Shown: piece after piece, positions 13,640 to 29,091 of the stretch | Numbering within the stretch: the first letter of the stretch is position 1 | How the letters are laid out: every line of letters begins with the position of its first letter | From: Breznakia sp. PF5-3 | GTDB lineage: Bacteria > Bacillota_I > Bacilli_A > Erysipelotrichales > Erysipelotrichaceae | Length of the DNA stretch: 32,000 nucleotides | NCBI RefSeq assembly: GCF_029504745.1 | Contig: NZ_JAQFIQ010000007.1 | Coordinates: 30,001 to 62,000 of the forward strand | Direction of reading: 5' to 3' | Notes under the pieces: generated by a model | Seen by the model: the letters and a program-made list of their open reading frames with translations, nothing else | The model's database searches: none | Told to the model about the DNA's origin: nothing | Position numbers and translations under genes: made by a program

Positions 13640-14200
13640 ATGAAGAAACTTAGAATCAGGAGTGAATATGTCATTTTTATTTTGAGAATGTTTGTAATCT
13701 TCAGCGTTCTTGTTTTTGTTGTAACTACTTTTATCTTTCGAACGGTGCGAATCAATGGACAAAGTATGGAACCAACATTACAAAGCGGAGAATATGCATT
13801 TTCAAACAGATTGGCAGCAGATGAAGGGAATATCAATCGATTTGATGTAATTGTAATTGATAACATTGAAGAAGATTATGTGGTGAAAAGAGTAATTGCA
13901 CTCCCCAATGAAACCATATCTTACAAAGATGGAAAGTTATATATTAATGGTGAATGGTATGAAGAACCATTCTTAGATCAAGAATATATTGCTTTGCATA
14001 CAATGAATAATCAAATTACTTTTACGCAAAATTTTGGACCAATCACATTAGGTGAAAATGAATATTTTGTACTTGGTGATAACCGATTGAATTCAAAAGA
14101 CTCTCGGGTCGTTGGTCCAATTCCTGAAAAAGACATTGTTGCAAAAGATGTAATTGTAGTATATCCGCTAAATAGTATACGTGTAGAAAGTTCCAACTAA
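13640..14200 (+). CDS. lepB: Signal peptidase I
   Basis: N-terminal TM, catalytic Ser box GQSMEPTL, Lys box VKRVIALPNE, and box E GDNRLNSKDSR. 186 aa. Confidence 0.92.
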   Translation: MKKLRIRSEYVIFILRMFVIFSVLVFVVTTFIFRTVRINGQSMEPTLQSGEYAFSNRLAADEGNINRFDVIVIDNIEEDYVVKRVIALPNETISYKDGKLYINGEWYEEPFLDQEYIALHTMNNQITFTQNFGPITLGENEYFVLGDNRLNSKDSRVVGPIPEKDIVAKDVIVVYPLNSIRVESSN

Positions 14201-14226
14201 TTTTTTAATTATTGGAACCTTTTTTG
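14190..14226 (+). terminator. Weak terminator-like hairpin after lepB, overlapping the -35 of the next promoter
   Basis: gttccaa (14190-14196) / ttggaac (14212-14218), 15-nt AT loop, then T6 (14220-14225). The stem is short, so this is tentative. Confidence 0.35.
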
Positions 14227-14238
14227 TTTATTTCCGTC
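14214..14238 (+). promoter_or_regulatory. ECF-type promoter P1 (GGAACC-N15-CGTC) upstream of sigma gene 1
   Basis: GGAACC 14214-14219, CGTC 14235-14238. Same motif and spacing as at 20795. ECF sigma promoters classically carry GGAAC at -35 and CGT(C) at -10. It lies 30 nt upstream of ATG 14268, which fits autoregulation. Confidence 0.6.
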
Positions 14239-14267: not shown

Positions 14268-15593
14268 ATGAGCAGATTGAAAAAAGAAGAGATTCAAAAA
14301 TTTCTAGATGGAGACGATAGTGTTTTTCCTGAGATTTTTGCTGCTTATCGTAATAAGATTAATTATCTTGCGATAGAAATCTTACGAAACCAGGCAGATT
14401 GTGAGGAAGTAGTTCAAAATACGTTTATTAAAATCATTACCAAACGTAAGGATTTACGTGATGCTAGTGCTTTTAATACATGGATTTATCGAATTGCTTA
14501 CAACGACTGTATGGATATATATCGGCAAAATAAAAAGGGTAAAACAGGTATGAATAATGACTACACTCTAGAAAATTATTCTGACAACAAAGGAGAGCCA
14601 AACGATGTGGTGAGTAAAAAGGCAATTTTAGAAGCAATTCAAAGCGAAATTGATGGCCTTCCAGAGGATATGAAACAAGTGTGTTTGTTAAGATTCGTTG
14701 GTGAATGTAGCCTTGAAGAAATCTCTGAAATCATGAGTATTCCAAAAGGCACAGTAAAGAGTAGGCTAAACAGGGCAAAAGTAAAACTTCGAGAAGGGCT
14801 GGTTGATAAGCATGTGACTCCAGCAATCTATATGTCATTGTCATTTACACCTTTGGTATTTAAGTTGTATGCATCGTTAGTAAAACAACAAGAGATGCAA
14901 CCACTTGTAGAAACAAAAGTTGCTAAAGTTATTGAAAACGCAACAGGAGTAACAGCAGGAGTAACGGTCGCAAGCGGAGGAATGATTATAGGATTTGGTA
15001 GTGCAGTAATAGGAACATCTATATTATTAGCATTATTTGGCACTTATACGATTATAAATCCAATTATTGATCAAACGGCTGAAGTTGTAAAAATTGAGGA
15101 AATCAATTATTTGAAAGATCTTACAAATGAAAATTTGCAGATTGTTCTCATGTTCAGTGGAGAACCAGATGCAAAAGATATTAGTATAACATTTGTTGAT
15201 GAAAATACAACGATCGAGGCTGAATCCGTTGACAATGAAAACTACATGTTTGTTGCGAAGGCGAATGGAACATATCATGTAGAGTATGGTGGGGTAGCAC
15301 AGGATATCAAAGTTGATAACATTGACAAGCAAAGCCCTAAATTGAAAAGTTTAGAAAAGGAAGAAGGATTACTTAAGATTATAGGTAGTGATGATTTTTC
15401 TGGCATTGATTTCGATAAATCATACGTTGAAGAGGGTTCCAATAAGTTTGATTTGATCAAAATTGATGATACATCTGCATTTTTCAAAGATGCAGTTAAG
15501 AAAAAGGCAAAGCTGTATTTGTATGATAAGGTAGGAAATTACCAGGTCTATGAGATCAATGCAACAGATACAGTGAGCAATACAGATGGGTAG
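14268..15593 (+). CDS. Membrane-tethered ECF (sigma-70 family) sigma factor fused to a TM helix and an extracellular Ig-like C-terminal domain
   Basis: aa ~20-90 form sigma region 2 (EEVVQNTFIKI..AFNTWIYRIAYNDCMDIYR). aa ~125-180 form region 4 (LPEDMKQVCLLRF..SLEEISEIMSIPKGTVKSRLNRAK). The TM is GGMIIGFGSAVIGTSILLALFGTYTII. About 175 aa of ectodomain follow (NGTYHVEY..VDNIDKQSP; LYLYDKVGNYQVYEI). It is paralogous to 27790-29091. Confidence 0.8.
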   Translation: MSRLKKEEIQKFLDGDDSVFPEIFAAYRNKINYLAIEILRNQADCEEVVQNTFIKIITKRKDLRDASAFNTWIYRIAYNDCMDIYRQNKKGKTGMNNDYTLENYSDNKGEPNDVVSKKAILEAIQSEIDGLPEDMKQVCLLRFVGECSLEEISEIMSIPKGTVKSRLNRAKVKLREGLVDKHVTPAIYMSLSFTPLVFKLYASLVKQQEMQPLVETKVAKVIENATGVTAGVTVASGGMIIGFGSAVIGTSILLALFGTYTIINPIIDQTAEVVKIEEINYLKDLTNENLQIVLMFSGEPDAKDISITFVDENTTIEAESVDNENYMFVAKANGTYHVEYGGVAQDIKVDNIDKQSPKLKSLEKEEGLLKIIGSDDFSGIDFDKSYVEEGSNKFDLIKIDDTSAFFKDAVKKKAKLYLYDKVGNYQVYEINATDTVSNTDG

Positions 15594-15693
15594 TTTCATA
15601 AAATTAGGTCTATGAAACAATACACTGTATATCCATAAAGCAATTTATGGAGAAGTGAAAGATTATAAAATTAGAATGGAGGGAGTGAAAGTT

Positions 15694-18600
15694 TTGAGAC
15701 GTAAATACGTAAAAACATTAAAGATGTTTAAAAGGTGTTTTCTTACAGCACTGGCATTAGGTATTACACTTACGGCAATAAACCTGCCAAAAATGGATAT
15801 CCATGCTCAAACAGAGGATGTTCGCTATGATTTGCAAACGGAATTAAGCGAAGATAAAAAAGAACTTCGTATTGATTTATTAGCTTATGCAAATAGGAAT
15901 GATGTTGAAATAACGGCGATTGGTAACCCTGATGGGACCATCACGGATGGAGCAAAAACGTCATATGTTTCTGTAACAAATGAAACATTGACATTTGTGG
16001 TGAACTACAAAATATTAGAAGAGAAAGATGGAAAAATAAAAGAAATCTCAAAGACAAAAGAAGTTGAATATGAGGTGGATCAATTTGGTAAAGAAGAAGA
16101 GGCACAGCCTCAAGCATTAAGTGATCCATTGGCACCATTTTCATCTTTAAAAGCAAATATGAGTTTTAGAAATGCTTTTAATGTATCTCATACAAAAGAT
16201 GGGTTATACTATCTTTCTGATAATTCTATGGAATTAGGGTATCACTATAATGAATATGTGAAATTTTTGCTTAGCAAAGCACGTTGTACTACATCAAAGT
16301 ATTGGGAAGGCTGGTATGCGAAGTTTGCTGCAGTATCAAAATATAAAGTTGATTTCTCAAAAGATTTTAAAGTTACAAACGTAATATCTTCAAATCCAAC
16401 ATTATATGGAGATGGGTTCACGTTAGGATTTCAAACAGATCCAAACTTTACATATACAACAGGTAAAGGGGGTTCTATAGGAGTTTACCGTAATGGTAGT
16501 GACTATGGGGCTCGCAATGGTGTAGTATTTGAAGTTGATTATCATGATAACTCTCCAGATGGAATGTGGCATGATATAGGATTAGGTGGAAATCACTTAG
16601 CAATTCATACAACGGATGCTTATGGAAATGAATCAACTCCAGTTGCTTCTTGGTTCGGTGTAAAACACACAGGAAGTCTAACTGCATTCAATGTGACTTG
16701 GACAATTACAGATAAAGCTACAAACACTGGGACATTGACATTTACATATGGAACATACAATTTGAAATATACAAATTTCAGACCACATGAAGTATTTGGT
16801 GGGTCAGTAAACAATCCTACAGCAGCATATTTAACATATACTGGAGTAATCTTGAAAGATTATGGTTCAAATAACAAACCATTCCAAATCACAATGACAG
16901 ATTATTCTTATCTTGAAGATGAAGTAACTGCAAGTGATGGATTTATTACCCAAACTCAAGCAAAAGCTTTGGCAAACCAAAATGGATTAATTCTTTATAA
17001 CAATGCATCTGCAGTTTCTACTGCTGGAGATAGTGTTACACCTACGGTTTCAACACCTGCATGGAGCAACATTAAATCTGGTTTAGTAGGTACTTATGAT
17101 GTGACATATGCTTATGGAACAGCATCAAAAACAGTAAAATTAAGCGTAATTAAAGATGGATCAATCATTTCACCAAACAAGGATTTCTCACTTTATGCAG
17201 AAAATGCTTCCTTGTTACAAAGTGAAGCAATTGCATTAAGTTCAATGAATGATTTAGTATCTGTTCATGATGCAAGTGTAACGATGGCAAATGGAACGCT
17301 TCTTGCACCAAATGCAACAACAAGTGCTTGGTCATCAATCAAAGCTGGGGTTGTAGGAAATTACGTGATTACTTTCTATTATGGAACAGGATCAAACTAC
17401 ACAGCAAAAAACGTTACATTATCAGTTGTTGCTGATAAGAAACATGAAATATATGCAAGTGATGGATTTATTACCCAATCACAAGCTAAGGCACTTACGA
17501 GTATGCAAGGATTTATTCCTTACAACCAAGCAAAAGTAATTACTAATGAAGGTGTTACTACGGTGCCAAGTACCGTTGCTACGAACTATTGGAATGAAAT
17601 TAACACAGGAACAATCGGTTCTTATAACGTTACATATTCTTATGGATCAGGAACAGCAAGAGTATCAAAAACAGTAAAATTAAATGTTGTGAAAGATGGA
17701 ACTGTGTTCCCTCCAGATAACAGTTTTGCATTATATGCAGAAGATGGTTTTATTAAACAAAGTCAAGCAAAAGCACTTACATCAACAAGCCAATTAATAC
17801 CTTATAACAATGCGAGCGTAACATTGGCTGATGGAAGTAGTGATGTACCATTCGTTAGTTTAAATACTTGGTCAAATATTGTGAGTGGAACGATTGGTAG
17901 CTACGATATCGTATATATGTATGGTGCTGGTGCTAACCTTAAATATAAAGTTGTGAAATTAAACGTTATTGAAGATGGTGGTATTATTGCACCAGATAAG
18001 AGTTTTGCATTATATGCAGATAATGGAACGATTTCACAAACCCAAGCATCTGCACTTACAGGTACATCACAATTAATCCCTTATAACAATGCGAAAGTAA
18101 TTTTGGCGAACGGAACACGTGCAGAACCAAATGTATCTGCTCCAACGTATAGCGAAATTGTGAGTGGGGTTGTAAAGACTCATAAAGTTACATATAGTTA
18201 TGGAGTGCTTACAAACAAAGTATCTAAAGAAGTAGACTTACAATTAATTGCTGATAAGCGTCATGAAGTTCGCGCAGAAGATGGCTTCATTTATGCAACA
18301 CAAGCGAAAGCATTAACAAATCAAAGTGAATTAATTCCATTTAATAGTGCAAGTGTTATAACAAACACTGGTCAAAGTGCACAACCGGTTGTAACAACAG
18401 GAAGTTGGGCTAACATTGTAGCTGGGGTAACTGGTTCATATGATATTACTTATAGCTATGGAAGTGGAACAACACAAGGATCAAAAACAGTAGTCTTGAA
18501 TGTTGTACCAGATGGAACAATATTCCCACCAGATAAAGCATTTGCAGTATATGCAGAAGATGGTTTAATCAATGTGGAACAAGCGAAGAAGTTAACAGCA

Positions 18601-20691
18601 CAAAAAGATCTTATTCCATATAACTCAGCATATGTAATGTTGAAAAATGGAACGATTGTAGATCCAGATGTATCTACTTGGGATTGGGTAAAAATCTCAG
18701 CTGGAATTGAAGGAACATATGATGTTAACTATGGTTATACAATTATGCCGAATACGGTTCAAAAAGGTGTAAAACTTACTGTAACAAAAGGTACAACACC
18801 ACCAAGTAATTCATTCTCATTATATGCTAGAGATGGATTTGTATATGAAGATCAAGCAAAAGCATTTACTGCCCAAAAAGATATGATTCCATTCAATGAT
18901 GCTTTTGTAACATTGAAGGATGGATCAAGTGTAGATCCACAAGTTGCAACACCTCATTGGTCAGCAATTAAGGATGGAACAATTGGTTCATATCCAGTAA
19001 CATATGGTTATACAAAGGGTAGTGAATCATTATCAAGTGTTGTGAAATTGAATGTTGTAGAAAATGGTTCTACCATTTCACCAGGACAAGATTTTGCAAT
19101 TTATGCTAAGAATGGAATTATTCAACAATCATCTGCACAAGCATTGATTAGCTTGAATGATTTAATTCCTTACAATGGTGCAAAAGTTACCCTTAAAGAT
19201 GGTAGTGAAGCTACGCCAACGGTAACAACAGCAGATTGGACAGCAATTCGTGCAGGAGTATTGGGTACATATTCAATTACCTATAGTTATGGTAGTGGTA
19301 CGAATACAGCATCTAAAGTGGTAACACTAAGAGTAGTACCAGATGGAAATCCTTCACCAGAAGGAGACTTCATCTTATATGCTTCAAATGGATTCATTTC
19401 AAAAGAGCAGGCGATGGCTATTACAAGTCAAAAAGATTTGATTCCATATAACAAAGCATCCGTTATCAAGGACGATGGTAGCGATGCAGAACCATCTGTA
19501 TCAACAACTAGTTATGCAGATATTAAAGCTGGTAAATTAGGTGTTTACAATGTAACATATCGTTATGGATTTGGTACAAACTTAGTTTCAAAAACAGTGA
19601 AACTTACAGTTCATGATGGTACTCCTTCACCAGGAGGAAATTATGTATTAAATGCTAAAGATGGTTTAATTTCTAAAAGCGAAGCAAAAGCATTAAGTTC
19701 AACAGCAGACTTAATTGCAATTAACGACGCATCTGTTTGGATGAATGATGGATCAACTGATGTTCCAGTGGTTACAATGCTACCACTTAATTGGTTATCT
19801 TTAAATGAAGGTATTATCAATAGCTATCCAGTTCTTTATAGTTATGGAAGTGGTAGTGATTATACACAAAAAACAGTTCGTGTAACAGTGTATGATGATG
19901 GTGGTATCATATCTCCAAATAAAGACTTTGTATTAAATGCTAAGAATGCAGTATTAACACAAAGTGAAGCAAAAACTTTAACAAGTGCAAGTGACTTAAC
20001 CGTTTATAATGATGCTCTTGTTAGTTATGCAAATGGTAACAAAGCAATTCCAAATACAACAGCTACAGAATTTGCTTCTATTAAAAGTGGTGTAGTAGGA
20101 ACTTACAATGTAACATATGATTATGGTACAGGATCTAATTACACAGAAAAAGCAGTGAAATTAGTAGTTGTAAAGGATGGCGCATTGATTGCACCAGATC
20201 GTAGTTTTGCGATTTATGCAGAAGATGTAACATTGAATCAAGATGAGGCACGCGCATTGACAAACAAAAATCAAATTACAAGTTTGGCACACGCGATGGT
20301 CTATATTGCAGATGGAACAACAGCAACACCTACGTTGTCACTTCCAGATTGGGATGATATCAAAGCAGGTATTTCAAATGATTATGCTGCTGATTTCACA
20401 TATCAAGATGTAACAGGTAGTATTAATATAAAAGTTACGCAAGAATATGTAACAAGATATCTATTTGACTATGATAATAACAAACGTATTGATGTTATTG
20501 ATTATGCTTATTTTGCAAGTTACTATAGTGGTGCAACACCAATGTCTCCATTGGCTTGGGCATTAACAGATTACCCACCAGGAGATGGACGTATCGATGT
20601 TATCGATTTAGCACACTTTAAACGTCATTACAGCGATTCGACACTTCCATTGGTTGAAGTAGAAGTACCAGCAGATTGGCGCTTAGAATAA
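15694..20691 (+). CDS. Giant secreted adhesin-like protein: signal peptide, N-terminal beta module, L-type lectin-like domain, 13 Ig-like (Big_3/DUF5011-like) repeats and a C-terminal dockerin-like module
   Basis: The likely start is TTG 15694, 11 nt after GGAGG (15678-15682); the listed GTG 15655 has no SD. Signal peptide RRKYVKTLKMFKRCFLTALALGITLTAINL..IHA/QT. Lectin-like blocks DGFTLGFQ, GGSIGVY, NGVVFEVDYHDN, NHLAIHT. Repeat signature DGFIxQxQAKALT..LIPYN.A.V...G....P.V....W..I..G..G(S/T)Y.VTY.YG.G....K.V.L.V. The C-terminus has two Ca-loop-like segments, DYDNNKRIDVID and PGDGRIDVID. Confidence 0.85.
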   Translation: MRRKYVKTLKMFKRCFLTALALGITLTAINLPKMDIHAQTEDVRYDLQTELSEDKKELRIDLLAYANRNDVEITAIGNPDGTITDGAKTSYVSVTNETLTFVVNYKILEEKDGKIKEISKTKEVEYEVDQFGKEEEAQPQALSDPLAPFSSLKANMSFRNAFNVSHTKDGLYYLSDNSMELGYHYNEYVKFLLSKARCTTSKYWEGWYAKFAAVSKYKVDFSKDFKVTNVISSNPTLYGDGFTLGFQTDPNFTYTTGKGGSIGVYRNGSDYGARNGVVFEVDYHDNSPDGMWHDIGLGGNHLAIHTTDAYGNESTPVASWFGVKHTGSLTAFNVTWTITDKATNTGTLTFTYGTYNLKYTNFRPHEVFGGSVNNPTAAYLTYTGVILKDYGSNNKPFQITMTDYSYLEDEVTASDGFITQTQAKALANQNGLILYNNASAVSTAGDSVTPTVSTPAWSNIKSGLVGTYDVTYAYGTASKTVKLSVIKDGSIISPNKDFSLYAENASLLQSEAIALSSMNDLVSVHDASVTMANGTLLAPNATTSAWSSIKAGVVGNYVITFYYGTGSNYTAKNVTLSVVADKKHEIYASDGFITQSQAKALTSMQGFIPYNQAKVITNEGVTTVPSTVATNYWNEINTGTIGSYNVTYSYGSGTARVSKTVKLNVVKDGTVFPPDNSFALYAEDGFIKQSQAKALTSTSQLIPYNNASVTLADGSSDVPFVSLNTWSNIVSGTIGSYDIVYMYGAGANLKYKVVKLNVIEDGGIIAPDKSFALYADNGTISQTQASALTGTSQLIPYNNAKVILANGTRAEPNVSAPTYSEIVSGVVKTHKVTYSYGVLTNKVSKEVDLQLIADKRHEVRAEDGFIYATQAKALTNQSELIPFNSASVITNTGQSAQPVVTTGSWANIVAGVTGSYDITYSYGSGTTQGSKTVVLNVVPDGTIFPPDKAFAVYAEDGLINVEQAKKLTAQKDLIPYNSAYVMLKNGTIVDPDVSTWDWVKISAGIEGTYDVNYGYTIMPNTVQKGVKLTVTKGTTPPSNSFSLYARDGFVYEDQAKAFTAQKDMIPFNDAFVTLKDGSSVDPQVATPHWSAIKDGTIGSYPVTYGYTKGSESLSSVVKLNVVENGSTISPGQDFAIYAKNGIIQQSSAQALISLNDLIPYNGAKVTLKDGSEATPTVTTADWTAIRAGVLGTYSITYSYGSGTNTASKVVTLRVVPDGNPSPEGDFILYASNGFISKEQAMAITSQKDLIPYNKASVIKDDGSDAEPSVSTTSYADIKAGKLGVYNVTYRYGFGTNLVSKTVKLTVHDGTPSPGGNYVLNAKDGLISKSEAKALSSTADLIAINDASVWMNDGSTDVPVVTMLPLNWLSLNEGIINSYPVLYSYGSGSDYTQKTVRVTVYDDGGIISPNKDFVLNAKNAVLTQSEAKTLTSASDLTVYNDALVSYANGNKAIPNTTATEFASIKSGVVGTYNVTYDYGTGSNYTEKAVKLVVVKDGALIAPDRSFAIYAEDVTLNQDEARALTNKNQITSLAHAMVYIADGTTATPTLSLPDWDDIKAGISNDYAADFTYQDVTGSINIKVTQEYVTRYLFDYDNNKRIDVIDYAYFASYYSGATPMSPLAWALTDYPPGDGRIDVIDLAHFKRHYSDSTLPLVEVEVPADWRLE
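16921..20445 (+). repeat. 13 tandem, diverged ~255-285 nt (~88-90 aa) coding repeats (Ig-like modules)
   Basis: I counted 13 units from the recurring (L/I/V)YA(E/D/K/S)(D/N)GF..(Q/E)AKAL .. G(S/T)Y(D/N)VTY.YG motifs. Short identical DNA strings recur, e.g. aaaacagtaaaattaa at ~17131 and ~17671. Confidence 0.85.
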
Positions 20692-20744: not shown

Positions 20745-20775
20745 AAAGAGGATGCTAACGCATTCTCTTTTTTTA
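20745..20775 (+). terminator. Strong rho-independent terminator after the giant adhesin gene
   Basis: aaagaggatgc (20745-20755) / gcattctcttt (20760-20770), 11 bp with one G-U. The loop is taac and the stem runs into ttttttt. Confidence 0.8.
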
Positions 20776-20794: not shown

Positions 20795-20819
20795 GGAACC
20801 TTTTGCGCTGGATTCCGTC
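20795..20819 (+). promoter_or_regulatory. ECF-type promoter P3 (GGAACC-N15-CGTC) upstream of the cohesin-like gene operon
   Basis: GGAACC 20795-20800, CGTC 20816-20819. The flank TTCCGTCGATAT compares with P1 TTCCGTCAATAT. It lies ~60 nt upstream of ATG 20881 and just downstream of terminator 20745-20775. Confidence 0.6.
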
Positions 20820-20880: not shown

Positions 20881-22413
20881 ATGAAATTGAAAATAAAGAG
20901 TAATAAATTCAAGATCCTGGCAGTTGTAGTTTTGGCTGCTATTGTGGCAATCCCAAGTATGTTGGCAGCAAAGCCTATGGATACGAAAGCGGATGAAGTA
21001 GATGGCGAACCTACTTTTGATATTGCACCAATACATCAGGTAACTAGAAATGATGGAGGAGGAGCATATGGAACACATGCTCAACAAAGCTATGTAGAAG
21101 ATGGTGTTCAATATTATCGTAATGGCGATATTATTGAAGTAAGCATCATGCTTCCTAAAGGACACGGTGCGACCGTATTCCAAGATGTTGTAAAATATGA
21201 CGAAGAGAAATTAACATTAATTTCACCTTTCACAGATATTAAAGCAACATTATCTAAAAACTATTTAGATAAAAGATGGTCAACAGAAGTGTCAAACCCA
21301 AATGCAGATACTTCACGTATTTTAGTATTTGGATCAGCAGCAGATTTTACAACTGGTGCTGAATACCAAGGTGGTAGTGTTGCTAGAATGTATTTCCGCG
21401 TTAATAATAATGTGGAATCTGATGCAGGTACAGCAATTACATTTGAATTCCCAGAATTCCAAACCGCTGGATATTCAAATGGAAAAGTTGTATATACACA
21501 CAGAGGATATGATGCAAATAACGATGCAGCTACTGCATTCTATCAAGCAGAACCAGTTACAATATATGCAAAAACACCTTCAAAAACAGTAAATGCACCA
21601 ACCCTTAACTTGAAGAATAGTTCAGCAACTATTTATGAAGGAGATTTATTTGATCCAGCTTCATACATAAGCAATGCTTCTTGTGAGGTTGATAAATCAG
21701 TAAGCAAAGACACTGTTGATATTAGTGAAGGAACTGGAGTTTATACAAAACATCAACCAGCAGCTGGAACTTATGTTTATAAATACAGCGTAACAAGTAG
21801 TACAGGAAAATCAACAGAGAAACAATTGTCTTTAAAAGTAACAGCAAGAACATATACAGTTGCTTCTATCGATGTAGATTCTAAAAAAATATCATTGCCT
21901 GTTGGAACAGCAAGTTCTGATTTAGAAGCAATGATTAATGAGATGAAAAAAGAAGACTTTAATGTAACTATTACTTGTAATGATGGTTCTAAATTTGTTG
22001 TTCCAGGAAAAGTATTGAATGGAAAAACAGATACTTACCGTATTGATGAAAACGATAAGTTATTAGCACAAACATTTAATGTTAACTTTACATTAGCATT
22101 GCCACTTGTTTCTTATGGAACAGATGGATCAAGAATTGTAACGCCATACAATGGAAGTTCAAGTTTTGTAAGTAATGTTGGAAATGGAAGAGCGGATGCA
22201 AAAGTTCCTGTTATTATCGGTACAGGTAATTCAGGAGGAAACAATACTGGAGGAAATTCTTCAGGAAAACCATCTACTGCACCTACAGCAGGAAGTAGTA
22301 ATGGTAGTGGTTCTGCAGCTTCAACAGGGGATACAACAAATGTAACATTCCTTGCAGTATTAGCTATTTTATCAGCAGGATTTATCGTACGTTCAAAATT
22401 TAAAAAACAATAA
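20881..22413 (+). CDS. Cell-surface anchoring protein: signal peptide, cohesin-like module, Ig-like domains, G/S/N/T linker and a cell-wall-sorting-like C-terminus
   Basis: Start ATG 20881 after agaggagg; the listed 20752 extension crosses a terminator and a promoter. Signal peptide KFKILAVVVLAAIVAIPSMLAAKP. Cohesin-like region ~21004-21575 (GDIIEVSIMLP..VFQDVVKYDEEKLTLIS..RILVFG..GGSVARMYFRVNN..GTAITFEF). Big_3-like SSATIYEGDLFDP..GTYVYKYSV. Tail GSGSAASTGDTTNVTFLAVLAILSAGFIVRSKFKKQ. Confidence 0.8.
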   Translation: MKLKIKSNKFKILAVVVLAAIVAIPSMLAAKPMDTKADEVDGEPTFDIAPIHQVTRNDGGGAYGTHAQQSYVEDGVQYYRNGDIIEVSIMLPKGHGATVFQDVVKYDEEKLTLISPFTDIKATLSKNYLDKRWSTEVSNPNADTSRILVFGSAADFTTGAEYQGGSVARMYFRVNNNVESDAGTAITFEFPEFQTAGYSNGKVVYTHRGYDANNDAATAFYQAEPVTIYAKTPSKTVNAPTLNLKNSSATIYEGDLFDPASYISNASCEVDKSVSKDTVDISEGTGVYTKHQPAAGTYVYKYSVTSSTGKSTEKQLSLKVTARTYTVASIDVDSKKISLPVGTASSDLEAMINEMKKEDFNVTITCNDGSKFVVPGKVLNGKTDTYRIDENDKLLAQTFNVNFTLALPLVSYGTDGSRIVTPYNGSSSFVSNVGNGRADAKVPVIIGTGNSGGNNTGGNSSGKPSTAPTAGSSNGSGSAASTGDTTNVTFLAVLAILSAGFIVRSKFKKQ

Positions 22414-22473
22414 AAGAAAAGACAGATGTAGAAAAGGTGTTTTATACATCTTTTCTACCATGTAGGAGGGAAA

Positions 22474-25400
22474 ATGAAAAAATTCTTTAAATTATTTATC
22501 GCTGCATTTATAGCAGTAACATGTATTGTTCCTTTACAAAGTATTTCAGCGGCTTATGGAGATCCAGTAGAGCCAATTTACCAAATTTCACGTAATGATG
22601 GTGGAGGGAAATATGGAACACATAAGAACCCTGATTATAAAGAGGGAACTACACAATATTACCGTGATGGAGATATTATCGAGGTAGATTTCAGATTACC
22701 AGCTGATTCAGGAGTTCAAATTTATAACCAAGTTATTAAATATGACTCAGATCAGTTAGATTTATTATCATCAGATACAGATATTACAGGTACTTTATCA
22801 TCTACTTTCACAAGTAAGAATTGGTCAAGTACAACAGCAAGAGACAATAATGACAATGAAAAAATCTTAGTTTATGGGGGAAGTAATAACTTTGGAAACC
22901 CTGATACAAAAGATTATACAGGTGGAACGATTGCTAAGGTTTACTTCAAAGTAAAAAATGGAGTTGAATCAACAGCAGGAACACCAATTACATTTGAATT
23001 TATGAATTTTCAAACAGCAGAGTTTAAAAATAACAAAGTTTCTTATACACATATAGGATATGATCCTAACAACGATGCAGGAACGGTATACTATACAGCT
23101 CCTTCACAAACCATTCAAGTAAAGAAACCAAGTGTAACATTTAGTGCTAATGATGGATTTATTACACAAAGCCAAGCAAAAGCATTAAATACAAAGAATG
23201 ATTTAAAAGCTTATAATGATGTAAGTGCAAAATTAACTGATGGCACTAATATTGATGTGACAACAGATGCACAAAACTTCAATGATATTAAAGCTGGAAA
23301 AATTGGTTCTTATGATGTGACATATGGATATACACATGATGGAAATTCAGATAGTAAAAAAGTAAAATTAAATGTAGTATCTGATGATGCAGTTATCTCA
23401 CCAGAGAAAAATTTTGCTTTATCAGCAGAACATGCATTTATTACTGCATCGGATGCGAAAAAGTTAACGAATAAAACACAATTGATTTCACTTAACAATG
23501 CAAAAGTAACATTGAAAAATGGTACTAACGCTACACCTAATGTAGATGCACCTGCATTTGCTTCTATTCAAGCAGGAAGTGTTGGAACTTACGAAGTTAC
23601 TTATAGTTATGGAAGTGGGTCTGATACAGCAAGTAAAAAAGTGTTTGTAACGGTTGTGAAAGATGGTTCGGTGATTTCACCTAACAAAGATTTCTCACTT
23701 TATGCAAAACATGGATTTATTAAGAATACAGAAGCTAAAAATTTAACAAGTAGAACTCAATTGATTCCATATAACAATGCAGAAGTTACACTTGTAAATG
23801 GAGATAAAAGAGATCCTAGACCAACAGTAACAGCTGCTGAATGGTTATCAATTACTTCTGGTATTAAAGGAAGTTACAATGTTCTTTATGAATATGGTGA
23901 TGGAGCAAATGAAACAAGCTTGGTTGTTAAAATAACAGTCATTGATGAAAACGATCCAATCTCACCAAACAAAGAAGCAAGTCTATCTGCACAAGATGTT
24001 GAGCTTAGTGAAACAGAAGCAAAAGCGCTTACATCAAAGAATGATTTGATTGCTTTAAATAAAGCGTCTGTTACATTATCTGACGGTTCTGTGGCAACAC
24101 CAACGATAGCAAGTGTTGATTATGCTAGTATAGTATCGGGTAAAATTGGAATTTATCCAATTACATATACATATGGTAGTGGTCAAGGAAAAGTTGATAA
24201 GACAGTAAATGTAATCGTTAAAGAAGATAAAAAACATGTAATTACATATGAAGATAAGATTATTACTGTTGATCAAGCAAAAGCATTATCTAGTAAAGAT
24301 GATCTTAGAGTGGTAAACAATGTTCAAGTAACAGCAATTGATGGATCACATCCAAATGCAGTTGTTGATGCACCAACATGGAGTTCTATTAAAGATGGTA
24401 AATTAGGAACATACACAGTTACTTATAGTTATGGATACGGAGATAAATTAGTATCTGTAAATGCAAAAGTTACAATCGTTCCAAATGGTTCAGAAATTGA
24501 TGATAACGCAAGTTTATATGCGCAAAATGGATTCCTTGAACAATCATCTGCAAAAGCACTAGTAACTAGAAATGATTTAATTCCTTATAATGCAGCGTCA
24601 GTTACATTATTAAGTGGTGGAACAGCAACGCCAACGGTTGGAATGAGCGCAGGAGATTGGTACTTATTGTCGGCAGGAGAATTAGGTTCATATGATGTTG
24701 TTTATTCATATGCAAGTTTAAGCAAACGTGTTCTTGCAACAGTAATTAAAGATGGATCTATCGTTTCTGAAGATAAGACAGCAAGTTTATATGCAGAAAA
24801 TGCATTTATTGAATCAAGCAATGCTAAGAAATTAGCAAATAAAGAAGCACTTAGAGCATATAACAAAGCGTCTGTAACATTAATTGATGGTAGAACAGCG
24901 AACGCAACAGTAGATGTTGCAGCTGCTGATTGGTTAGCAATCCAACAAGGAACAGTTGGAGCATATGACATACTATATACATATGGAAGTGGAGATGGAC
25001 AAGTTAGCAAGCGTGTAAAAATTGTTGTTATCGATGATGATCCAATCATTTCTCAAGATGGGAAAGTTGCATTGAATGCAGTTGATGGTGAAATTGCGGA
25101 TACGGATGCAAAGAAAGTTACAAGCAAAGAAGACTTGATTCCATATAACAGTGCAAAAGTTACATTGGAAGATGGAACTATCGCTAAATTGGATGTAACA
25201 ATATCTACAAGTAGCTTAAATGCTATTAAAGCAGGTACGTTAGGTACTTATACTGTTACATACTCTTATGGAAGTGTTGGAAGCCCAAGTTATGTAAGTA
25301 AAACAGTAAAATTAGAAGTTGTAATTAAAACAAGAGCAATTCATATGTTTGACTATGATGATAACAAACGTATTGATGTTATTGACTTAGCACATTTCAA

Positions 25401-25569
25401 TAGAATTTATTCTAATTCTATGAATGTTTCTGCATATGATTTAATGTTAACTGACTTCAACAAAGATAAACGTGTTGATGTTATTGATTTAACACAGTTT
25501 AAATATTACTATTCTAATTCATTGATTCTTCCACCAACAGTGGATGTACCAGTTGAAATAATTCCATAA
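22474..25569 (+). CDS. Secreted adaptor-like protein: signal peptide, cohesin-like module, 8 Ig-like repeats and a C-terminal dockerin-like module
   Basis: Signal peptide MKKFFKLFIAAFIAVTCIVPLQSISA/AYG. Cohesin-like region ~22555-23133 (GDIIEVDFRLPADSGVQIYNQVIKYDSDQLDLLS..KILVYGG..GGTIAKVYFKVKNG..GTPITFEF). Eight repeats of the same family as in 15694-20691. Dockerin-like DYDDNKRIDVIDLAHFNRIY ... DFNKDKRVDVIDLTQFKYYY. Confidence 0.85.
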   Translation: MKKFFKLFIAAFIAVTCIVPLQSISAAYGDPVEPIYQISRNDGGGKYGTHKNPDYKEGTTQYYRDGDIIEVDFRLPADSGVQIYNQVIKYDSDQLDLLSSDTDITGTLSSTFTSKNWSSTTARDNNDNEKILVYGGSNNFGNPDTKDYTGGTIAKVYFKVKNGVESTAGTPITFEFMNFQTAEFKNNKVSYTHIGYDPNNDAGTVYYTAPSQTIQVKKPSVTFSANDGFITQSQAKALNTKNDLKAYNDVSAKLTDGTNIDVTTDAQNFNDIKAGKIGSYDVTYGYTHDGNSDSKKVKLNVVSDDAVISPEKNFALSAEHAFITASDAKKLTNKTQLISLNNAKVTLKNGTNATPNVDAPAFASIQAGSVGTYEVTYSYGSGSDTASKKVFVTVVKDGSVISPNKDFSLYAKHGFIKNTEAKNLTSRTQLIPYNNAEVTLVNGDKRDPRPTVTAAEWLSITSGIKGSYNVLYEYGDGANETSLVVKITVIDENDPISPNKEASLSAQDVELSETEAKALTSKNDLIALNKASVTLSDGSVATPTIASVDYASIVSGKIGIYPITYTYGSGQGKVDKTVNVIVKEDKKHVITYEDKIITVDQAKALSSKDDLRVVNNVQVTAIDGSHPNAVVDAPTWSSIKDGKLGTYTVTYSYGYGDKLVSVNAKVTIVPNGSEIDDNASLYAQNGFLEQSSAKALVTRNDLIPYNAASVTLLSGGTATPTVGMSAGDWYLLSAGELGSYDVVYSYASLSKRVLATVIKDGSIVSEDKTASLYAENAFIESSNAKKLANKEALRAYNKASVTLIDGRTANATVDVAAADWLAIQQGTVGAYDILYTYGSGDGQVSKRVKIVVIDDDPIISQDGKVALNAVDGEIADTDAKKVTSKEDLIPYNSAKVTLEDGTIAKLDVTISTSSLNAIKAGTLGTYTVTYSYGSVGSPSYVSKTVKLEVVIKTRAIHMFDYDDNKRIDVIDLAHFNRIYSNSMNVSAYDLMLTDFNKDKRVDVIDLTQFKYYYSNSLILPPTVDVPVEIIP
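23140..25325 (+). repeat. 8 tandem diverged ~270 nt coding repeats (Ig-like modules), same family as 16921-20445
   Basis: Units start at FSANDGFITQSQAKAL, LSAEHAFITASDAKKL, LYAKHGFIKNTEAKNL, LSAQDVELSETEAKAL, ITYEDKIITVDQAKAL, LYAQNGFLEQSSAKAL, LYAENAFIESSNAKKL and LNAVDGEIADTDAKKV. Confidence 0.85.
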
Positions 25570-25598
25570 ACCTTATGATAATGAAGGGAAGGTTATTT

Positions 25599-26675
25599 AT
25601 GAGAAAACTAAAAAAACAAATAGCTATTCTTACAGTATTGATAATTGCATTCATTACTTGTGCTAGCCCTTTACAGGCTGTGCATTATTCACAAGTGCCA
25701 AGTAATAATGGGGGACACCGTTTGCAAAATTCAATTGCATATGTAGGAGGTGGAAGAGCACCATTTACAGAAAATGGAGTGACGTATTATAATGCAGGAA
25801 ATGTGATCGAGCTAACGGTCACATTACCTGCTAATACATACGCAGTATCTTTGCAAGAAATCATTACCTATGATTTAAATCAAGTAGATTTGGTAACAAG
25901 TTTTAATGATATTCGTCAAACCTTTGGGCAATCCCTTTTGAATGAAGGATGGGCACAAGATGTATTTAAGATGAATGGAAACAATAATCAAATTTTACTT
26001 TCTGCAGCAGGAAGTGATTGGACTAATCACTCAAGTATTGCTGGTGGAGTTGTAGGAAAGATACGTTTTCGAATCAAAGAACAAACAACAACTAATGTTG
26101 GAACAAATATCAACATTAATTTTGTTTATCAAATTGCAGGAGCAAAACCAAATGGAAAAGGGTTGGCATATATTCATGCTGGATATGATCCAAGCAATGA
26201 AGGCGGTACCTATCAAGTATCTGCACCAACGATTTCAATTGCGGCTCATAAGATACCATCTGCACCAACGACACCTACCAATCCTGAAAAACCTACTGAT
26301 CCAGTCGTGGATTATCATCCAAGTGTTGTGATCGATAAGGAAATCAGTGAAAGTAAGAAAAAAGAGATTGCGGCAATTACAGCGAAACGGGATTATTCAT
26401 TCGCAAAATCGAATGATTTTATGAATGGAAAGAATTCGTATCGAAATATTGCGAAAATGTTGATTGATCAAATGGTAAAGACAAAAGATAAAATCAAATA
26501 TCAAACATATGAGTTTAAAGATCAATATTTAGATATAAAGGCTAAGAAGACAATTGTGAAAACTACTTGTTATACACATTATCTTTATATCGGGATGAGT
26601 TTTGTAGTAATTTTTGTAACATATGGTTATAAAAAATATTTAGAAGCGAATCGTAAAGTGAAATGGAGGTCTTAA
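25599..26675 (+). CDS. Membrane-anchored cohesin-like protein: signal peptide, cohesin-like module, Pro/Thr linker and a C-terminal TM helix
   Basis: Start ATG 25599 after gaagggaagg. Signal peptide KQIAILTVLIIAFITCASPLQA/VH. Cohesin-like region ~25680-26253 (GNVIELTVTLPAN..LQEIITYDLNQVDLVTS..QILLSAAG..GGVVGKIRFRIKE..GTNININF). Linker PSAPTTPTNPEKPTDP. C-terminal TM YLYIGMSFVVIFVTYGY followed by KKYLEANRK. Confidence 0.75.
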   Translation: MRKLKKQIAILTVLIIAFITCASPLQAVHYSQVPSNNGGHRLQNSIAYVGGGRAPFTENGVTYYNAGNVIELTVTLPANTYAVSLQEIITYDLNQVDLVTSFNDIRQTFGQSLLNEGWAQDVFKMNGNNNQILLSAAGSDWTNHSSIAGGVVGKIRFRIKEQTTTNVGTNININFVYQIAGAKPNGKGLAYIHAGYDPSNEGGTYQVSAPTISIAAHKIPSAPTTPTNPEKPTDPVVDYHPSVVIDKEISESKKKEIAAITAKRDYSFAKSNDFMNGKNSYRNIAKMLIDQMVKTKDKIKYQTYEFKDQYLDIKAKKTIVKTTCYTHYLYIGMSFVVIFVTYGYKKYLEANRKVKWRS

Positions 26676-26832: not shown

Positions 26833-26858
26833 GGAACCTTTTTCGGATTATAAGCGTC
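26833..26858 (+). promoter_or_regulatory. ECF-type promoter motif P2 (GGAACC-N16-CGTC) with no adjacent gene
   Basis: GGAACC 26833-26838, CGTC 26855-26858. It shares GGAACCTTTTT with P1. The next CDS starts 273 nt downstream. Confidence 0.45.
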
Positions 26859-27130: not shown

Positions 27131-27592
27131 ATGAAAAAAATTATAATTAGCTCAATTTGCTTTGTTGCATTACTAGCTGGATGTTCTTCTGGTAGCAAGG
27201 GAAGTGAAAAAGTTTGTACAATGACACAAGGAGCTAGTGATGAATTAGAAGAAAAAATTACCATTTCTTATGATGGAGATACAGTAACAACCATTGTTTC
27301 AAAGACTACCATTGATGTAGAAAAAACGAAAACAGGTACAACAATGGAGGATTTAGAAAAGCTTGCAAAAGATGTTGATAAAGTTTATAACGCTATCAAG
27401 GGTGTAAAGTATACATATGAAAGCAAAGATAAGAAATTCTATGAAACGATAACTGTAGATATCAAGGAAGAGAATATGGAAGAATTACAAAACAAGGGAA
27501 TGATTAATATGTATGTTGATGAAGATGGAAAAATCTTAAAAGCTGACAAATTGATTGATTTCTTGAAAGATTCAGGAATGAAGTGTAAATAA
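27131..27592 (+). CDS. Lipoprotein, YehR/DUF1307-like
   Basis: Lipobox LLAGC (MKKIIISSICFVALLAGCSSG). ~150 aa with an alternating beta/alpha pattern (ITISYDGDTVTTIV..; YNAIKGVKYTYESKDKKFYETITVD; ..KADKLIDFLKDSGMKCK), typical of DUF1307 lipoproteins as I recall them. Confidence 0.6.
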   Translation: MKKIIISSICFVALLAGCSSGSKGSEKVCTMTQGASDELEEKITISYDGDTVTTIVSKTTIDVEKTKTGTTMEDLEKLAKDVDKVYNAIKGVKYTYESKDKKFYETITVDIKEENMEELQNKGMINMYVDEDGKILKADKLIDFLKDSGMKCK

Positions 27593-27712: not shown

Positions 27713-27739
27713 TGAACCATTTTTATGTTTATTTCAACT
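27713..27739 (+). promoter_or_regulatory. Diverged copy of promoter P1 upstream of sigma gene 2 (TGAACC-N17-AACT)
   Basis: TGAACCATTTTTATGTTTATTTCAACT compares with P1 GGAACCTTTTTTGTTTATTTCCGTC. The spacer string GTTTATTTC is identical, while both the -35 first base and the -10 CGTC differ. Functional status is unknown. Confidence 0.35.
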
Positions 27740-27789
27740 AATTATATGATAGGTTATATTTTTGTCATGTATTGAAAGGGGGCGATGCT

Positions 27790-29091
27790 ATGATGAGAAA
27801 AGTGGATGTGAAATATGTAGAAGCACTTCAACGCGGTGATTTGGAGGCTTTTAATGTAATTTACGATTATTATAAGAATTCCATTTATTTTTTTGTACTT
27901 AAATTTGTTGGTAATCAACAAGATGTTGAGGAAGTAGTACAAGATACGTTTGTCAATGCATATCGAAATATCAATATGTTGAAATCTTTGGATGCTTTTC
28001 ATTCATGGCTTTTTAGTATTGCTTACAGCCAAGCACAAATGGTATATCGAAGAAAATCACATGGTAATCTGATTGATGGGAATCTAGAAGAAATTGCTAA
28101 GGTTGAAGATTCACAAAAAAAAGAAATTGAAAATAAAGATATTCTTGGAGCTGTAGAAGATGAATTGTATAAATTGCCTGCAAAATATTCACAAGTAGGA
28201 CAATTGAAATACTTTGAAGAACTTTCGGTAAAAGAAATTGCAGAGGTCTTAAGTATTCCAGTCGGAACGGTTAAAACTAGATTAATGCGAATTAGAAAGA
28301 TGATATCTCCTGGTTTAGAAAAAAGAGGATATACACCAAAGAAATATTTTGGGTTTGCATTTACACCGCTTCTTTACCAAGCCTTTACAGCAATGATTAA
28401 CAATCATACATTGTCTGCTGAGCAATCAGTGTCAACGTTCAATACGATTCAAGAGAAGATTACTACTGGAGGAGGAACGGCCTTGTTGAGTGGTGTTTCT
28501 GCGACAGGTGCTATGGCATCTGCAGGTGTTAGTGCAGTAAATAAAGCAATGATTGGAGCAACTCTTATGGCAAGTGCAGTAGGTGGTGTTGTCATTTATC
28601 AAAACTTACATACGGAAGCTGCAGTAATTGAAGATATTGTATATTATCAAGATCTAACAAATAAGGATATTGAAGTTGCGGTTCTTTGCAATAAAGAAAT
28701 TGGTAGTGCGGATATTGATGTGTCGTATAACGAAACACCAGTCGTATTTCGTATAGAGGATAATAAGGTATTGTTTGATGCCAAAGATAATGGTGAATAT
28801 AAGATTAGTTTAAATGATGAAAATCAAGTCCTTACCATTGATAATATTGATAAGGAAGTTCCATTGATTCATAATGTGGCATATGATAACGATTTACTAA
28901 AAATTGAATTTGATGATGCAAATGCAATAGATTATCAAAAATCATATGTAAACTTTAATGAAAAATCATATACAATTTCAAAGCAAGGAACCGTTCATGA
29001 AAAATTGGATGGTGAGTTTGAAGTTGTGTTGTATGACTTGGCAGGGAATAAAGTCGGCTATAAGATAGACTTAAAGACATACAAAAATTAG
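27790..29091 (+). CDS. Second membrane-tethered ECF sigma factor fused to a TM segment and an extracellular Ig-like domain (paralogue of 14268-15593)
   Basis: Start ATG 27790 after aaaggggg. Region 2 EEVVQDTFVNAY..AFHSWLFSIAYSQAQMVYR. Region 4 LPAKYSQVGQLKYFEELSVKEIAEVLSIPVGTVKTRLMRIRK. Conserved FTPLLY linker, Ala/Gly-rich TM AMIGATLMASAVGGVVIY. Ectodomain YYQDLTNKDIEV.., NGEYKISL..IDNIDKEVP, VVLYDLAGNKVGYKI. Confidence 0.8.
   Translation: MMRKVDVKYVEALQRGDLEAFNVIYDYYKNSIYFFVLKFVGNQQDVEEVVQDTFVNAYRNINMLKSLDAFHSWLFSIAYSQAQMVYRRKSHGNLIDGNLEEIAKVEDSQKKEIENKDILGAVEDELYKLPAKYSQVGQLKYFEELSVKEIAEVLSIPVGTVKTRLMRIRKMISPGLEKRGYTPKKYFGFAFTPLLYQAFTAMINNHTLSAEQSVSTFNTIQEKITTGGGTALLSGVSATGAMASAGVSAVNKAMIGATLMASAVGGVVIYQNLHTEAAVIEDIVYYQDLTNKDIEVAVLCNKEIGSADIDVSYNETPVVFRIEDNKVLFDAKDNGEYKISLNDENQVLTIDNIDKEVPLIHNVAYDNDLLKIEFDDANAIDYQKSYVNFNEKSYTISKQGTVHEKLDGEFEVVLYDLAGNKVGYKIDLKTYKN

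Follow-up and report, generated by a model that had tools for sequence, protein, structure and literature searches.

The gene at positions 14268..15593 of a 32,000-nucleotide (nt) stretch of the genome of Breznakia sp. PF5-3 (contig NZ_JAQFIQ010000007.1, positions 30,001 to 62,000), hereafter called the window, was identified as a member of a family of one-component transmembrane sigma factors of gut Erysipelotrichales. Its 441-amino-acid (aa) product joins a sigma factor of the extracytoplasmic function (ECF) type to a short cytoplasmic module, a single transmembrane (TM) segment and an immunoglobulin (Ig)-like ectodomain. The N-terminal 180 aa are, by sequence, a genuine ECF (group 4) sigma factor, and the remainder is a fused homolog of membrane proteins which in related operons follow a separate sigma gene. 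It is fairly probable that the sigma domain is tethered and autoinhibited at the membrane, is freed by regulated proteolysis and then drives the adjacent surface-protein operons, with inhibition, release, signal and regulon all being predictions.

Sigma domain and protein family

The open reading frame (ORF) consists of 441 uninterrupted codons with no stop or frameshift, and its product is 100% identical to the NCBI entry "RNA polymerase sigma factor [Breznakia sp. PF5-3]". Matches to PF04542, PF08281 and PF04545 all exceeded the gathering scores (Table 1), and the NCBIfam model TIGR02937 (sigma70-ECF) was matched with 94.8 bits against a cutoff of 42.9. The closest solved structure was that of Bacillus subtilis SigW (5wuq, 7e-21). 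The identity of the sigma domain is considered firm because regions 2 and 4 and TIGR02937 exceed their cutoffs and SigW is the best relative in the PDB. The initial annotation, which had read complete regions 2 and 4 joined to a membrane part in one ORF, was correct on both points. No Pfam match to region 1 or region 3 of sigma70 was found in the 441-aa protein. Regions 2 and 4 are connected by a linker of about 25 aa (aa 91-118) with low AlphaFold2 confidence. The NCBIfam equivalogs (SigW, SigV, SigM, SigX etc.) all scored well under their cutoffs, e.g. 114 versus 209 bits, and the SigI model was absent among the best 25 of the 96 NCBIfam models matching the protein.

The C-terminal 263 aa were used as a profile in an exhaustive hidden Markov model (HMM) search of 1.84 billion representative proteins, where each family representative stands for one cluster at 50% identity. 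At E<=1e-3, 252 representatives were found. Among the top 156, 125 were 230-500 aa long, and 107 of these 125 carried an N-terminal sigma domain (>120 aligned residues) and a hydrophobic segment near residue 244. Orthologs of 437-447 aa possess the sigma domains and are 46-63% identical in the extension. A paralog within the window (27772..29091) aligns with the 441-aa protein across sigma domain, linker, TM segment and ectodomain, and the genome holds at least a third paralog, P0009, in the contig region designated L013. By cluster names, on which the taxonomy rests, all named members are Erysipelotrichales: Breznakia sp. PF5-3 (at least three paralogs), B. pachnodae DSM 16784, a Breznakia metagenome-assembled genome (MAG), Thomasclavelia sp. 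and Coprobacillaceae MAGs. A scan of genome contigs with narrow derived peptide patterns gave 3 loci only. The best 8000 candidates of a final word-indexed search were mostly ordinary ECF sigma factors, with about 8 new family members among them.

Split members were also identified in the family. P0113, P0098 and P0156 are stand-alone homologs of 251-255 aa with a cytoplasmic N-terminus of about 55 aa, a TM segment and the same ectodomain, and each of the three, all of which were checked, is encoded at +1, directly behind a separate ECF sigma gene of 188-202 aa. At the three junctions the genes overlap by 8 nt, are separated by 8 nt or overlap by 20 nt, each gene having its own start codon. 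The summed length of a pair (441-453 aa) is that of the fused form, and the break point lies right past the end of region 4. The separate sigma factor at locus L006 is 29% identical to the sigma domain of the window protein. The membrane partners have a distinct first helix, P[IL]xKxLNxSA, and in a neighbour-joining tree of the ectodomain the true split forms occupy one region, mixed with fused forms. Fused members numbered 107 and split ones about 7-10, several other "short" homologs being truncated gene calls which retain part of region 4. Since the split homologs show the canonical layout of a sigma/anti-sigma operon, the extension of the window protein is identified, from its sequence, as a homolog, fused to sigma, of an anti-sigma-type membrane protein encoded at +1; the anti-sigma role of the +1 proteins is itself predicted from position and topology.

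Domain architecture of the extension

The initial annotation had noted a conserved linker (FTPLVF) followed by one TM helix. Both were recovered, with the refinement that FTPLVF lies within a cytoplasmic module (Table 1) and that a second helix follows it before the hydrophobic segment at about aa 237-263. The consensus of this module in alignment A4 is L..KG[YF].P..Y[FL]S[FV]...P[LI]...F..[LI]......[ML]S......I...I, and P185 and P195 are each kept in more than 90% of family members. In the full-length AlphaFold2 model (mean pLDDT 64, built from an eight-sequence family alignment) the module forms helices at aa 195-207 and 212-226 with pLDDT of 71-79, while aa 184-195 have pLDDT <50. When aa 1-234 were modelled alone, aa 185-207 formed a single continuous helix. 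A Pfam search at E<=10 of the extension (14799-15590, from aa 178), the extension of the paralog and four stand-alone homologs returned only sub-threshold noise, a negative which spares a weak RsgI_N match, as the speed filters of HMMER lose most matches above about E 0.1. A profile search of the PDB with the 67 positions of A4 returned TALE-repeat artefacts only, with no qualifying stretch.

The equivalent TM segment of 106 fused members has a mean hydropathy maximum of 2.0, with a value of at least 1.6 in 90 of the 106. The net charge of the flanks is +1.3 on the N-terminal and -1.1 on the C-terminal side, a bias which fits an N-in/C-out topology. Ala, Gly, Ser and Thr make up 41% of the TM core, compared with 22% overall, and there are about two Gly or Pro per 19 residues. 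Helix-destabilising residues favour site-2 cleavage in substrates of RseP and RasP. The distance from sigma region 4 to the membrane is about 55 residues. Residues 186-205 were considered as a second TM segment and rejected; their hydropathy is only 1.25-1.38, and a second passage would put the Ig-like domains in the cytoplasm.

The Ig-like signatures quoted by the initial annotation from the extracytoplasmic part proved to be real. The ectodomain was resolved into two beta-sandwiches whose Foldseek matches are Ig- or fibronectin type III (FnIII)-like folds, namely MET IPT domains, filamin, SiiE and the Sap S-layer protein. Its motifs NGxY, NIDKxxP and LYDxxGN are highly conserved, with N333, G334, Y336, I352, D353 and P357 each kept in at least 90% of sequences. 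Together with FTP of the cytoplasmic module, they hold the most conserved positions of the extension among some 105 relatives. No carbohydrate-binding module was detected in the fusion.

The second type of ectodomain (NIDKxxP...LYDxxGN) was also observed in 11-22 tandem copies in giant surface proteins of 1800-7900 aa (P0013, P0018, P0040, P0055 and P0120), P0013 having 22 matching stretches. By its sequence, the sensor domain is a member of a repeat family that adhesin-like proteins employ. The idea that the neighbouring target proteins had supplied a domain for the sensor was rejected: when profile A1 was run with hmmsearch on every ORF of 80 aa or longer in the six frames of the window, only the two sigma fusions matched.

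Predicted promoters

The motif GAACC-N14-18-CGTC occurs three times on the + strand of the window, where 0.13 occurrences are expected, and each copy lies upstream of a gene start. The sequence is of the AAC (-35)/CGT (-10) type found with ECF sigma factors, and the first copy lies directly upstream of the fusion gene itself, pointing to probable autoregulation. The orthologous sigma genes of L002, L004, L005 and L011 (B. pachnodae) are preceded, in the corresponding place, by the element TGGAACCTTTT-N11/12-TCG[TC]C with a variable spacer. Equivalents of the second copy precede the ~500-aa gene in L002 (14813) and L004 (17183). In L001 the motif lies upstream of a divergent dockerin gene, and in L013, the cluster of the third paralog, GAACTTTT...CGTC stands before the dockerin gene. 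The window paralog is preceded by a related motif with a different -10-like element, which fits a distinct specificity. In silico, these occurrences support the prediction that the freed sigma factor would direct RNA polymerase to GGAACC-N15/16-CGTC at its own gene and at the adjacent surface-protein operons.

Comparison with known systems

A fused sigma factor and transmembrane sensor had been presented by the initial annotation as a departure from the usual two-protein arrangement. Their union in one polypeptide is upheld by the 28%-identical paralog and by about 100 family representatives, but it is not novel in kind, as single-chain sigma/anti-sigma proteins have been described in IutY and in ECF48/52/53 including SCO4117 (PMC8999054; PMC5411451). 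Current understanding is therefore not overturned. C-terminal extensions are the second most common mode of ECF regulation and are thought to have arisen repeatedly by gene fusion, and N-terminal sigma/anti-sigma fusions occur in ECF36 (PMC7826278; PMC7671368; PMC8999054). Among Firmicutes, ECF262-264 and ECF288 are groups with extensions, and the window family could already be a numbered ECF group.

IutY of Pseudomonas putida (ECF243 subgroup) is a sigma/anti-sigma hybrid of iron cell-surface signalling which is cut by Prc and then by RseP (PMC8999054; PMC5411451). Like the window fusion it is a single chain with an N-terminal ECF sigma factor, one TM segment and a C-terminal extracytoplasmic anti-sigma part, and in both cases related systems are split in two genes. 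The extension of IutY is FecR-type, whereas that of the window protein has no FecR or other Pfam match and ends in two Ig-like domains. IutY is signalled to by a TonB-dependent receptor of the outer membrane of a Gram-negative cell, whereas the host of the window fusion is a monoderm member of the Erysipelotrichales; the targets of IutY are siderophore uptake genes, those of the window fusion putatively surface-protein operons. ECF48, ECF52 and ECF53 of Actinobacteria, e.g. SCO4117 of Streptomyces coelicolor (ECF52), are predicted to be activated by proteolysis (PMC8999054; PMC5826349). Proteins of these groups share with the window fusion an ECF sigma factor and a long C-terminal extension with an anti-sigma-like segment, one or two TM segments and an extracytoplasmic domain, which in them is of carbohydrate-binding type. 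Phylum and ectodomain differ, and the extensions of ECF48/52/53 contain a zinc finger (ZAS-like) and a Pro-rich region, whereas aa 181-236 of the window protein contain neither Cys nor HxxxCxxC. The window protein thus shares with the described fusions a sigma factor, TM segment and extracytoplasmic domain in one uninterrupted ORF kept across relatives, and an extension homologous to stand-alone proteins encoded beside a separate sigma factor. A recognisable FecR-type or zinc-binding (HxxxCxxC) anti-sigma domain was not found in its extension by Pfam at E<=10 or by the PDB profile search with A4.

Among two-gene systems, SigW/RsiW and SigV/RsiV of B. subtilis are canonical Firmicutes pairs in which the sigma factor is set free by regulated intramembrane proteolysis. 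The window sigma domain is closest to SigW, with a score far under the equivalog cutoffs, and the anti-sigma factor of these systems is single-pass and N-in; their two-gene layout is that of the split members of the family, the window protein being one chain. In the SigI/RsgI pairs of Clostridium thermocellum an alternative sigma factor is paired with a membrane protein whose sensor module faces outward, and the two control dockerin-bearing surface-protein (cellulosome) genes. The initial annotation had drawn a parallel to this system. The pairing with a dockerin locus stood, since association with dockerin operons recurs among relatives and comes with a shared ECF-type promoter. The parallel to SigI/RsgI itself is reduced to a functional analogy: the window sigma is ECF-type (TIGR02937), its sensor is fused, and nothing links its extension to the RsgI N-terminal domain in the Pfam search at E<=10, from which weak matches could escape. 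ToxR and CadC tether an OmpR-type winged helix to a periplasmic sensor, whereas the cytoplasmic domain of the window protein is a sigma factor, and the likeness is one of logic only.

What appears to be new, as judged from the sequences, is a family restricted to Erysipelotrichales whose cytoplasmic module is short and unclassified, whose ectodomain is Ig-like and for which a local regulon is predicted, and the coexistence of fused and split members within one family. This is a sizeable unannotated family (about 250 clusters at 50% identity) whose extension has no Pfam model and whose members are listed in databases only as "RNA polymerase sigma factor". It allows one to ask how small an anti-sigma module can be, and the coexistence of both forms is convenient for asking what covalent linkage of sigma and anti-sigma changes in stoichiometry, noise and release mechanism. 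For cell-surface display systems in poorly studied bacteria of insect and animal guts, it provides a predicted promoter motif and a predicted regulon.

Proposed mode of action

In the proposed resting state the sigma domain would be kept at the membrane, and the neighbouring cytoplasmic module would probably mask it in addition. On sensing a cue outside the cell, the Ig-like ectodomain would be trimmed (site-1 cleavage), after which a site-2 protease would cut inside the Gly/Ala/Ser/Thr-rich membrane helix and free a soluble sigma domain. The freed sigma factor would activate its own gene and turn on the neighbouring operons of dockerin-type and anchor surface proteins. Release by proteolysis is proposed because the extension is homologous to the split anti-sigma partners and because IutY and ECF52 provide a precedent; the TM segment, being rich in small residues, looks like a site-2 protease substrate. 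A weak hint of masking came from the models. The sigma2/sigma4 arrangement in both AlphaFold2 models (full length and aa 1-234) was closest to anti-sigma-bound closed states, i.e. CnrH/CnrY (TM-score 0.75-0.78, rmsd ~4 A), RpoE/NepR (0.74-0.76) and SigW/RsiW (0.71-0.75), compared with only 0.31-0.45 for open forms bound to RNA polymerase.

Several observations weigh against this mechanism. AlphaFold2 often gives free ECF sigma factors a compact form, which weakens the match to closed states. In the model of aa 1-234 (pTM 0.47) the module helices have pLDDT of 59-70 and their packing onto the sigma domain is not confidently predicted, and the module resembled no known anti-sigma domain by sequence (Pfam E<=10; PDB profile search). 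After a site-2 cut the sigma factor would keep the putative inhibitory module, which would then have to be removed without destruction of the sigma domain. The ectodomain begins only about 8 residues past the membrane, no conserved site-1 cleavage motif was found across the family, and no site-2 protease gene was found within the window. Cleavage of the fusion is proposed by analogy. An Asn-Pro after the TM segment is confined to the Breznakia clade; it was rejected as an RsgI-like autoproteolysis site, since it lies at a helix end and not within a folded domain and is absent from the paralog and most of the family. For site 1, the signal peptidase I (S26) gene directly upstream is a tempting candidate by analogy with RsiV, whose site-1 cleavage is carried out by signal peptidase. 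Against this candidate, the adjacency is found only in close syntenic relatives and the gene sits upstream of the ECF promoter. It could simply serve the exported giant fibre or pilin proteins.

That a fused sigma factor must either act while tethered or be freed by proteolysis, as the initial annotation had reasoned, is supported by the conserved fusion and by the split homologs at +1 behind stand-alone ECF sigma factors. Activity in the tethered state, in the manner of ToxR and CadC, would mean that the sigma domain is never released, that a signal from the ectodomain moves the module off sigma2/sigma4, and that polymerase is recruited at the membrane. The predominance of the fused form throughout a long-conserved family would suit such a factor, as would the lack of an evident site-1 motif or dedicated protease across the family, the reach given by some 55 residues between sigma4 and the membrane, and the fact that the putative targets are all adjacent genes for secreted or surface proteins. 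To our knowledge no sigma factor functions membrane-anchored, and the TM segment rich in small residues resembles a site-2 protease substrate. The sole fusion dissected by experiment, IutY, needs proteolysis (PMC8999054). On balance this mode of action is rather unlikely. It might link the export of giant secreted proteins to the transcription of their genes, and the fuller form of the idea, in which polymerase initiates at the envelope on the adjacent promoters and sensing, transcription and export are coupled, is judged unlikely. If the sigma factor did act in place, it would be the first membrane-tethered one, and the fused and split homologs would form a natural test.

Another possibility is that the gene encodes a polyprotein, with a constitutive cut in the poorly structured GxxP segment past region 4 giving a canonical 1:1 pair of sigma factor and membrane anti-sigma factor whose behaviour would be that of the split homologs. 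It is exactly there that these are divided into two proteins, the segment at aa 184-195 is of very low confidence in the full-length model, and both of its prolines are nearly invariant. This is quite improbable, however, given that no protease or autoproteolytic motif was identified, that the distinct first helix of the split proteins means that the two forms are not simply interchangeable, and that the segment is part of a continuous helix in the shorter model. An artificial fusion, whether from an error in sequencing or assembly or from recent loss of a stop codon, could in principle come about through a single-base change, since the genes of the split homologs overlap or nearly abut. It is effectively refuted: the initial annotation had named a stop or frameshift in other isolates as the sign of such an artefact, and the fused form was instead found in the 28%-identical paralog, in independently assembled sequences from Breznakia sp., B. 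pachnodae DSM 16784, Thomasclavelia and Coprobacillaceae, and in about 107 clusters at 50% identity, with the junction segment conserved as well. The sequence conservation indicates that the fusion is real and under selection.

Genetic context and related proteins

The features of the locus are listed in Table 1.

Table 1. Sigma fusion gene, its domains, neighbouring genes and predicted promoters (positions in the window)
Feature	Position	Strand	Evidence or remarks
Whole gene: ECF sigma, cytoplasmic module, TM segment, two Ig-like ectodomains; 441 aa	14268..15593	+	Pfam, NCBIfam, hydropathy, AlphaFold2
Sigma region 2, aa 24-90	14337..14537	+	Pfam PF04542 Sigma70_r2, 7e-11; helix pLDDT 81-91
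Sigma region 4, aa 122-176	14631..14795	+	PF08281 Sigma70_r4_2, 8e-13 (aa 122-174); PF04545, 1e-10
Cytoplasmic module past region 4, aa 181-226, ~45 aa	14808..14945	+	G..P..Y.S....P and two helices; candidate short anti-sigma/autoinhibitory segment
Single TM segment, aa ~237-263, Gly/Ala/Ser/Thr-rich	14976..15056	+	Kyte-Doolittle 19-residue maximum 2.17; AlphaFold2 confidence low
Ectodomain beta-sandwich 1, aa ~272-349 (Y281, T286-N287, N333-G334-x-Y336)	15081..15314	+	AlphaFold2 strands 276-349; conservation; Ig/FnIII-like Foldseek matches
Ectodomain beta-sandwich 2, aa ~352-431 (NIDKxxP, DxxSGIDYxKSY, LYDxxGN)	15321..15560	+	AlphaFold2 359-431; conservation
Predicted ECF-type promoter TGGAACC-N15-CGTC	14213..14238	+	directly upstream of sigma fusion gene
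Second predicted ECF-type promoter GGAACC-N15-CGTC	20795..20819	+	behind terminator-like hairpin 20745-20770
Third predicted ECF-type promoter GGAACC-N16-CGTC	26833..26858	+	upstream of DUF1307 gene 27131-27592; L002 equivalent 20907
Signal peptidase I (S26) gene	13640..14200	+	PF10502, 1e-43; TIGR02227, 2e-43; immediately upstream of sigma fusion
1678-aa repeat protein, dockerin-like C-terminus	15655..20691	+	61-nt gap from sigma fusion, no terminator-like site; L004 ortholog with Dockerin_1
Probable target operon: ~510-aa secreted, 1031-aa Big_3/dockerin and 366-aa membrane-anchored proteins	20881..26675	+	same gene order in L002, L005 and L013
Paralogous sigma-TM-Ig fusion, 439 aa	27772..29091	+	28% identity over full length, E=6e-57; Pfam matches
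Paralog promoter-like motif TGAACC-N17-AACT	27713-27739	+	upstream of 27772..29091

The initial annotation had placed the fusion gene at the head of the locus, but it does not strictly head the conserved block, since the signal peptidase I gene lies directly before it in all four syntenic relatives. The order signal peptidase I, sigma fusion, 1100-1680-aa, ~510-aa, ~1035-aa and ~355-aa protein genes is kept in the window, L002/L003 and L005. L004 retains positions one to three as well as the ~500-aa and ~1045-aa genes, with an intervening Na/H-exchanger gene; that locus stops before any ~355-aa gene. In L013 the portion from the sigma gene to the ~1031-aa gene is duplicated. The position of the S26 gene is kept in L002, L004 and L005, and the gene is absent beside P0005 in L001. 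Another S26 gene was seen near the third paralog (L013 3318-3860), within a cluster of FctA/DUF7601 pilin-like genes.

As had been stated, no separate anti-sigma gene follows the fusion: no small membrane-protein gene was found there, and the next gene is that of the 1678-aa repeat protein, which by its position is a probable co-transcribed target. The 1678-aa protein contains many tandem repeats of ~100 aa and, C-terminally, a duplicated Ca-binding segment that is dockerin-like, and its N-terminus matches the Listeria LCP N-terminal model below the cutoff (4.8e-17). Pfam detected no dockerin in it, Dockerin_1 being found only in the L004 ortholog. For the ~510-aa gene the listed start at 20752 is almost certainly too early, because the hairpin and the ECF-type promoter lie inside that frame and a good ribosome-binding site precedes an ATG at 20881 with which a signal peptide begins; the true start at 20881 gives ~510 aa, matching orthologs of 499-516 aa. 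The 1031-aa protein (22474-25569, +) has Big_3 and a weak Dockerin_1 match. The 366-aa protein (25575-26675, +) has a signal peptide, a beta-rich domain of ~190 aa, a Pro/Thr linker and, at its C-terminus, a membrane anchor. It had no sequence match in Pfam or the PDB and no cohesin domain was detected in it; its place in the locus makes it a possible anchoring (cohesin-like) partner for the proteins with dockerins.

Genes for dockerin, leucine-rich repeat (LRR) or Listeria-Bacteroides-repeat surface proteins adjoin the sigma fusion genes in L001, L002, L004, L005, L013, L014 and L015, those of the more distant members being LRR or Listeria-Bacteroides-repeat proteins. From these neighbourhoods each member appears to be wired to an adjacent operon of large surface proteins (dockerin, LRR, Listeria-Bacteroides repeat). 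In the NCBI entry the window paralog starts with the ATG at 27790 and has 433 aa. It is followed after 11 nt by a gene (29103-30272) for a secreted protein of 389 aa, which is anchored at its C-terminus and has a Listeria-Bacteroides repeat. The split pair of P0098 (L007/L008 5288-8768) lies upstream of genes for a 546-aa protein and a GBS104-like Ig/VWA protein of the pilus-tip-adhesin type, a surface-protein setting reminiscent of that of the fused forms.

Other ECF sigma fusions were also observed. P0176, P0177, P0178, P0179, P0174 and P0182 (536-608 aa) have an Ala/Gly/Thr-rich low-complexity stretch, a TM segment and different ectodomains, and have in common the motif Y/F-G/S-hydrophobic-x-x-P-L right past region 4. 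This suggests, on sequence grounds, a wider class of transmembrane sigma fusions whose sensors can be exchanged, with the Ig-type family as one of its branches. The ectodomains of P0176 and P0177 are BspA-type LRR, and the types in the wider set of fusions include LRR_5 and LRR_14.

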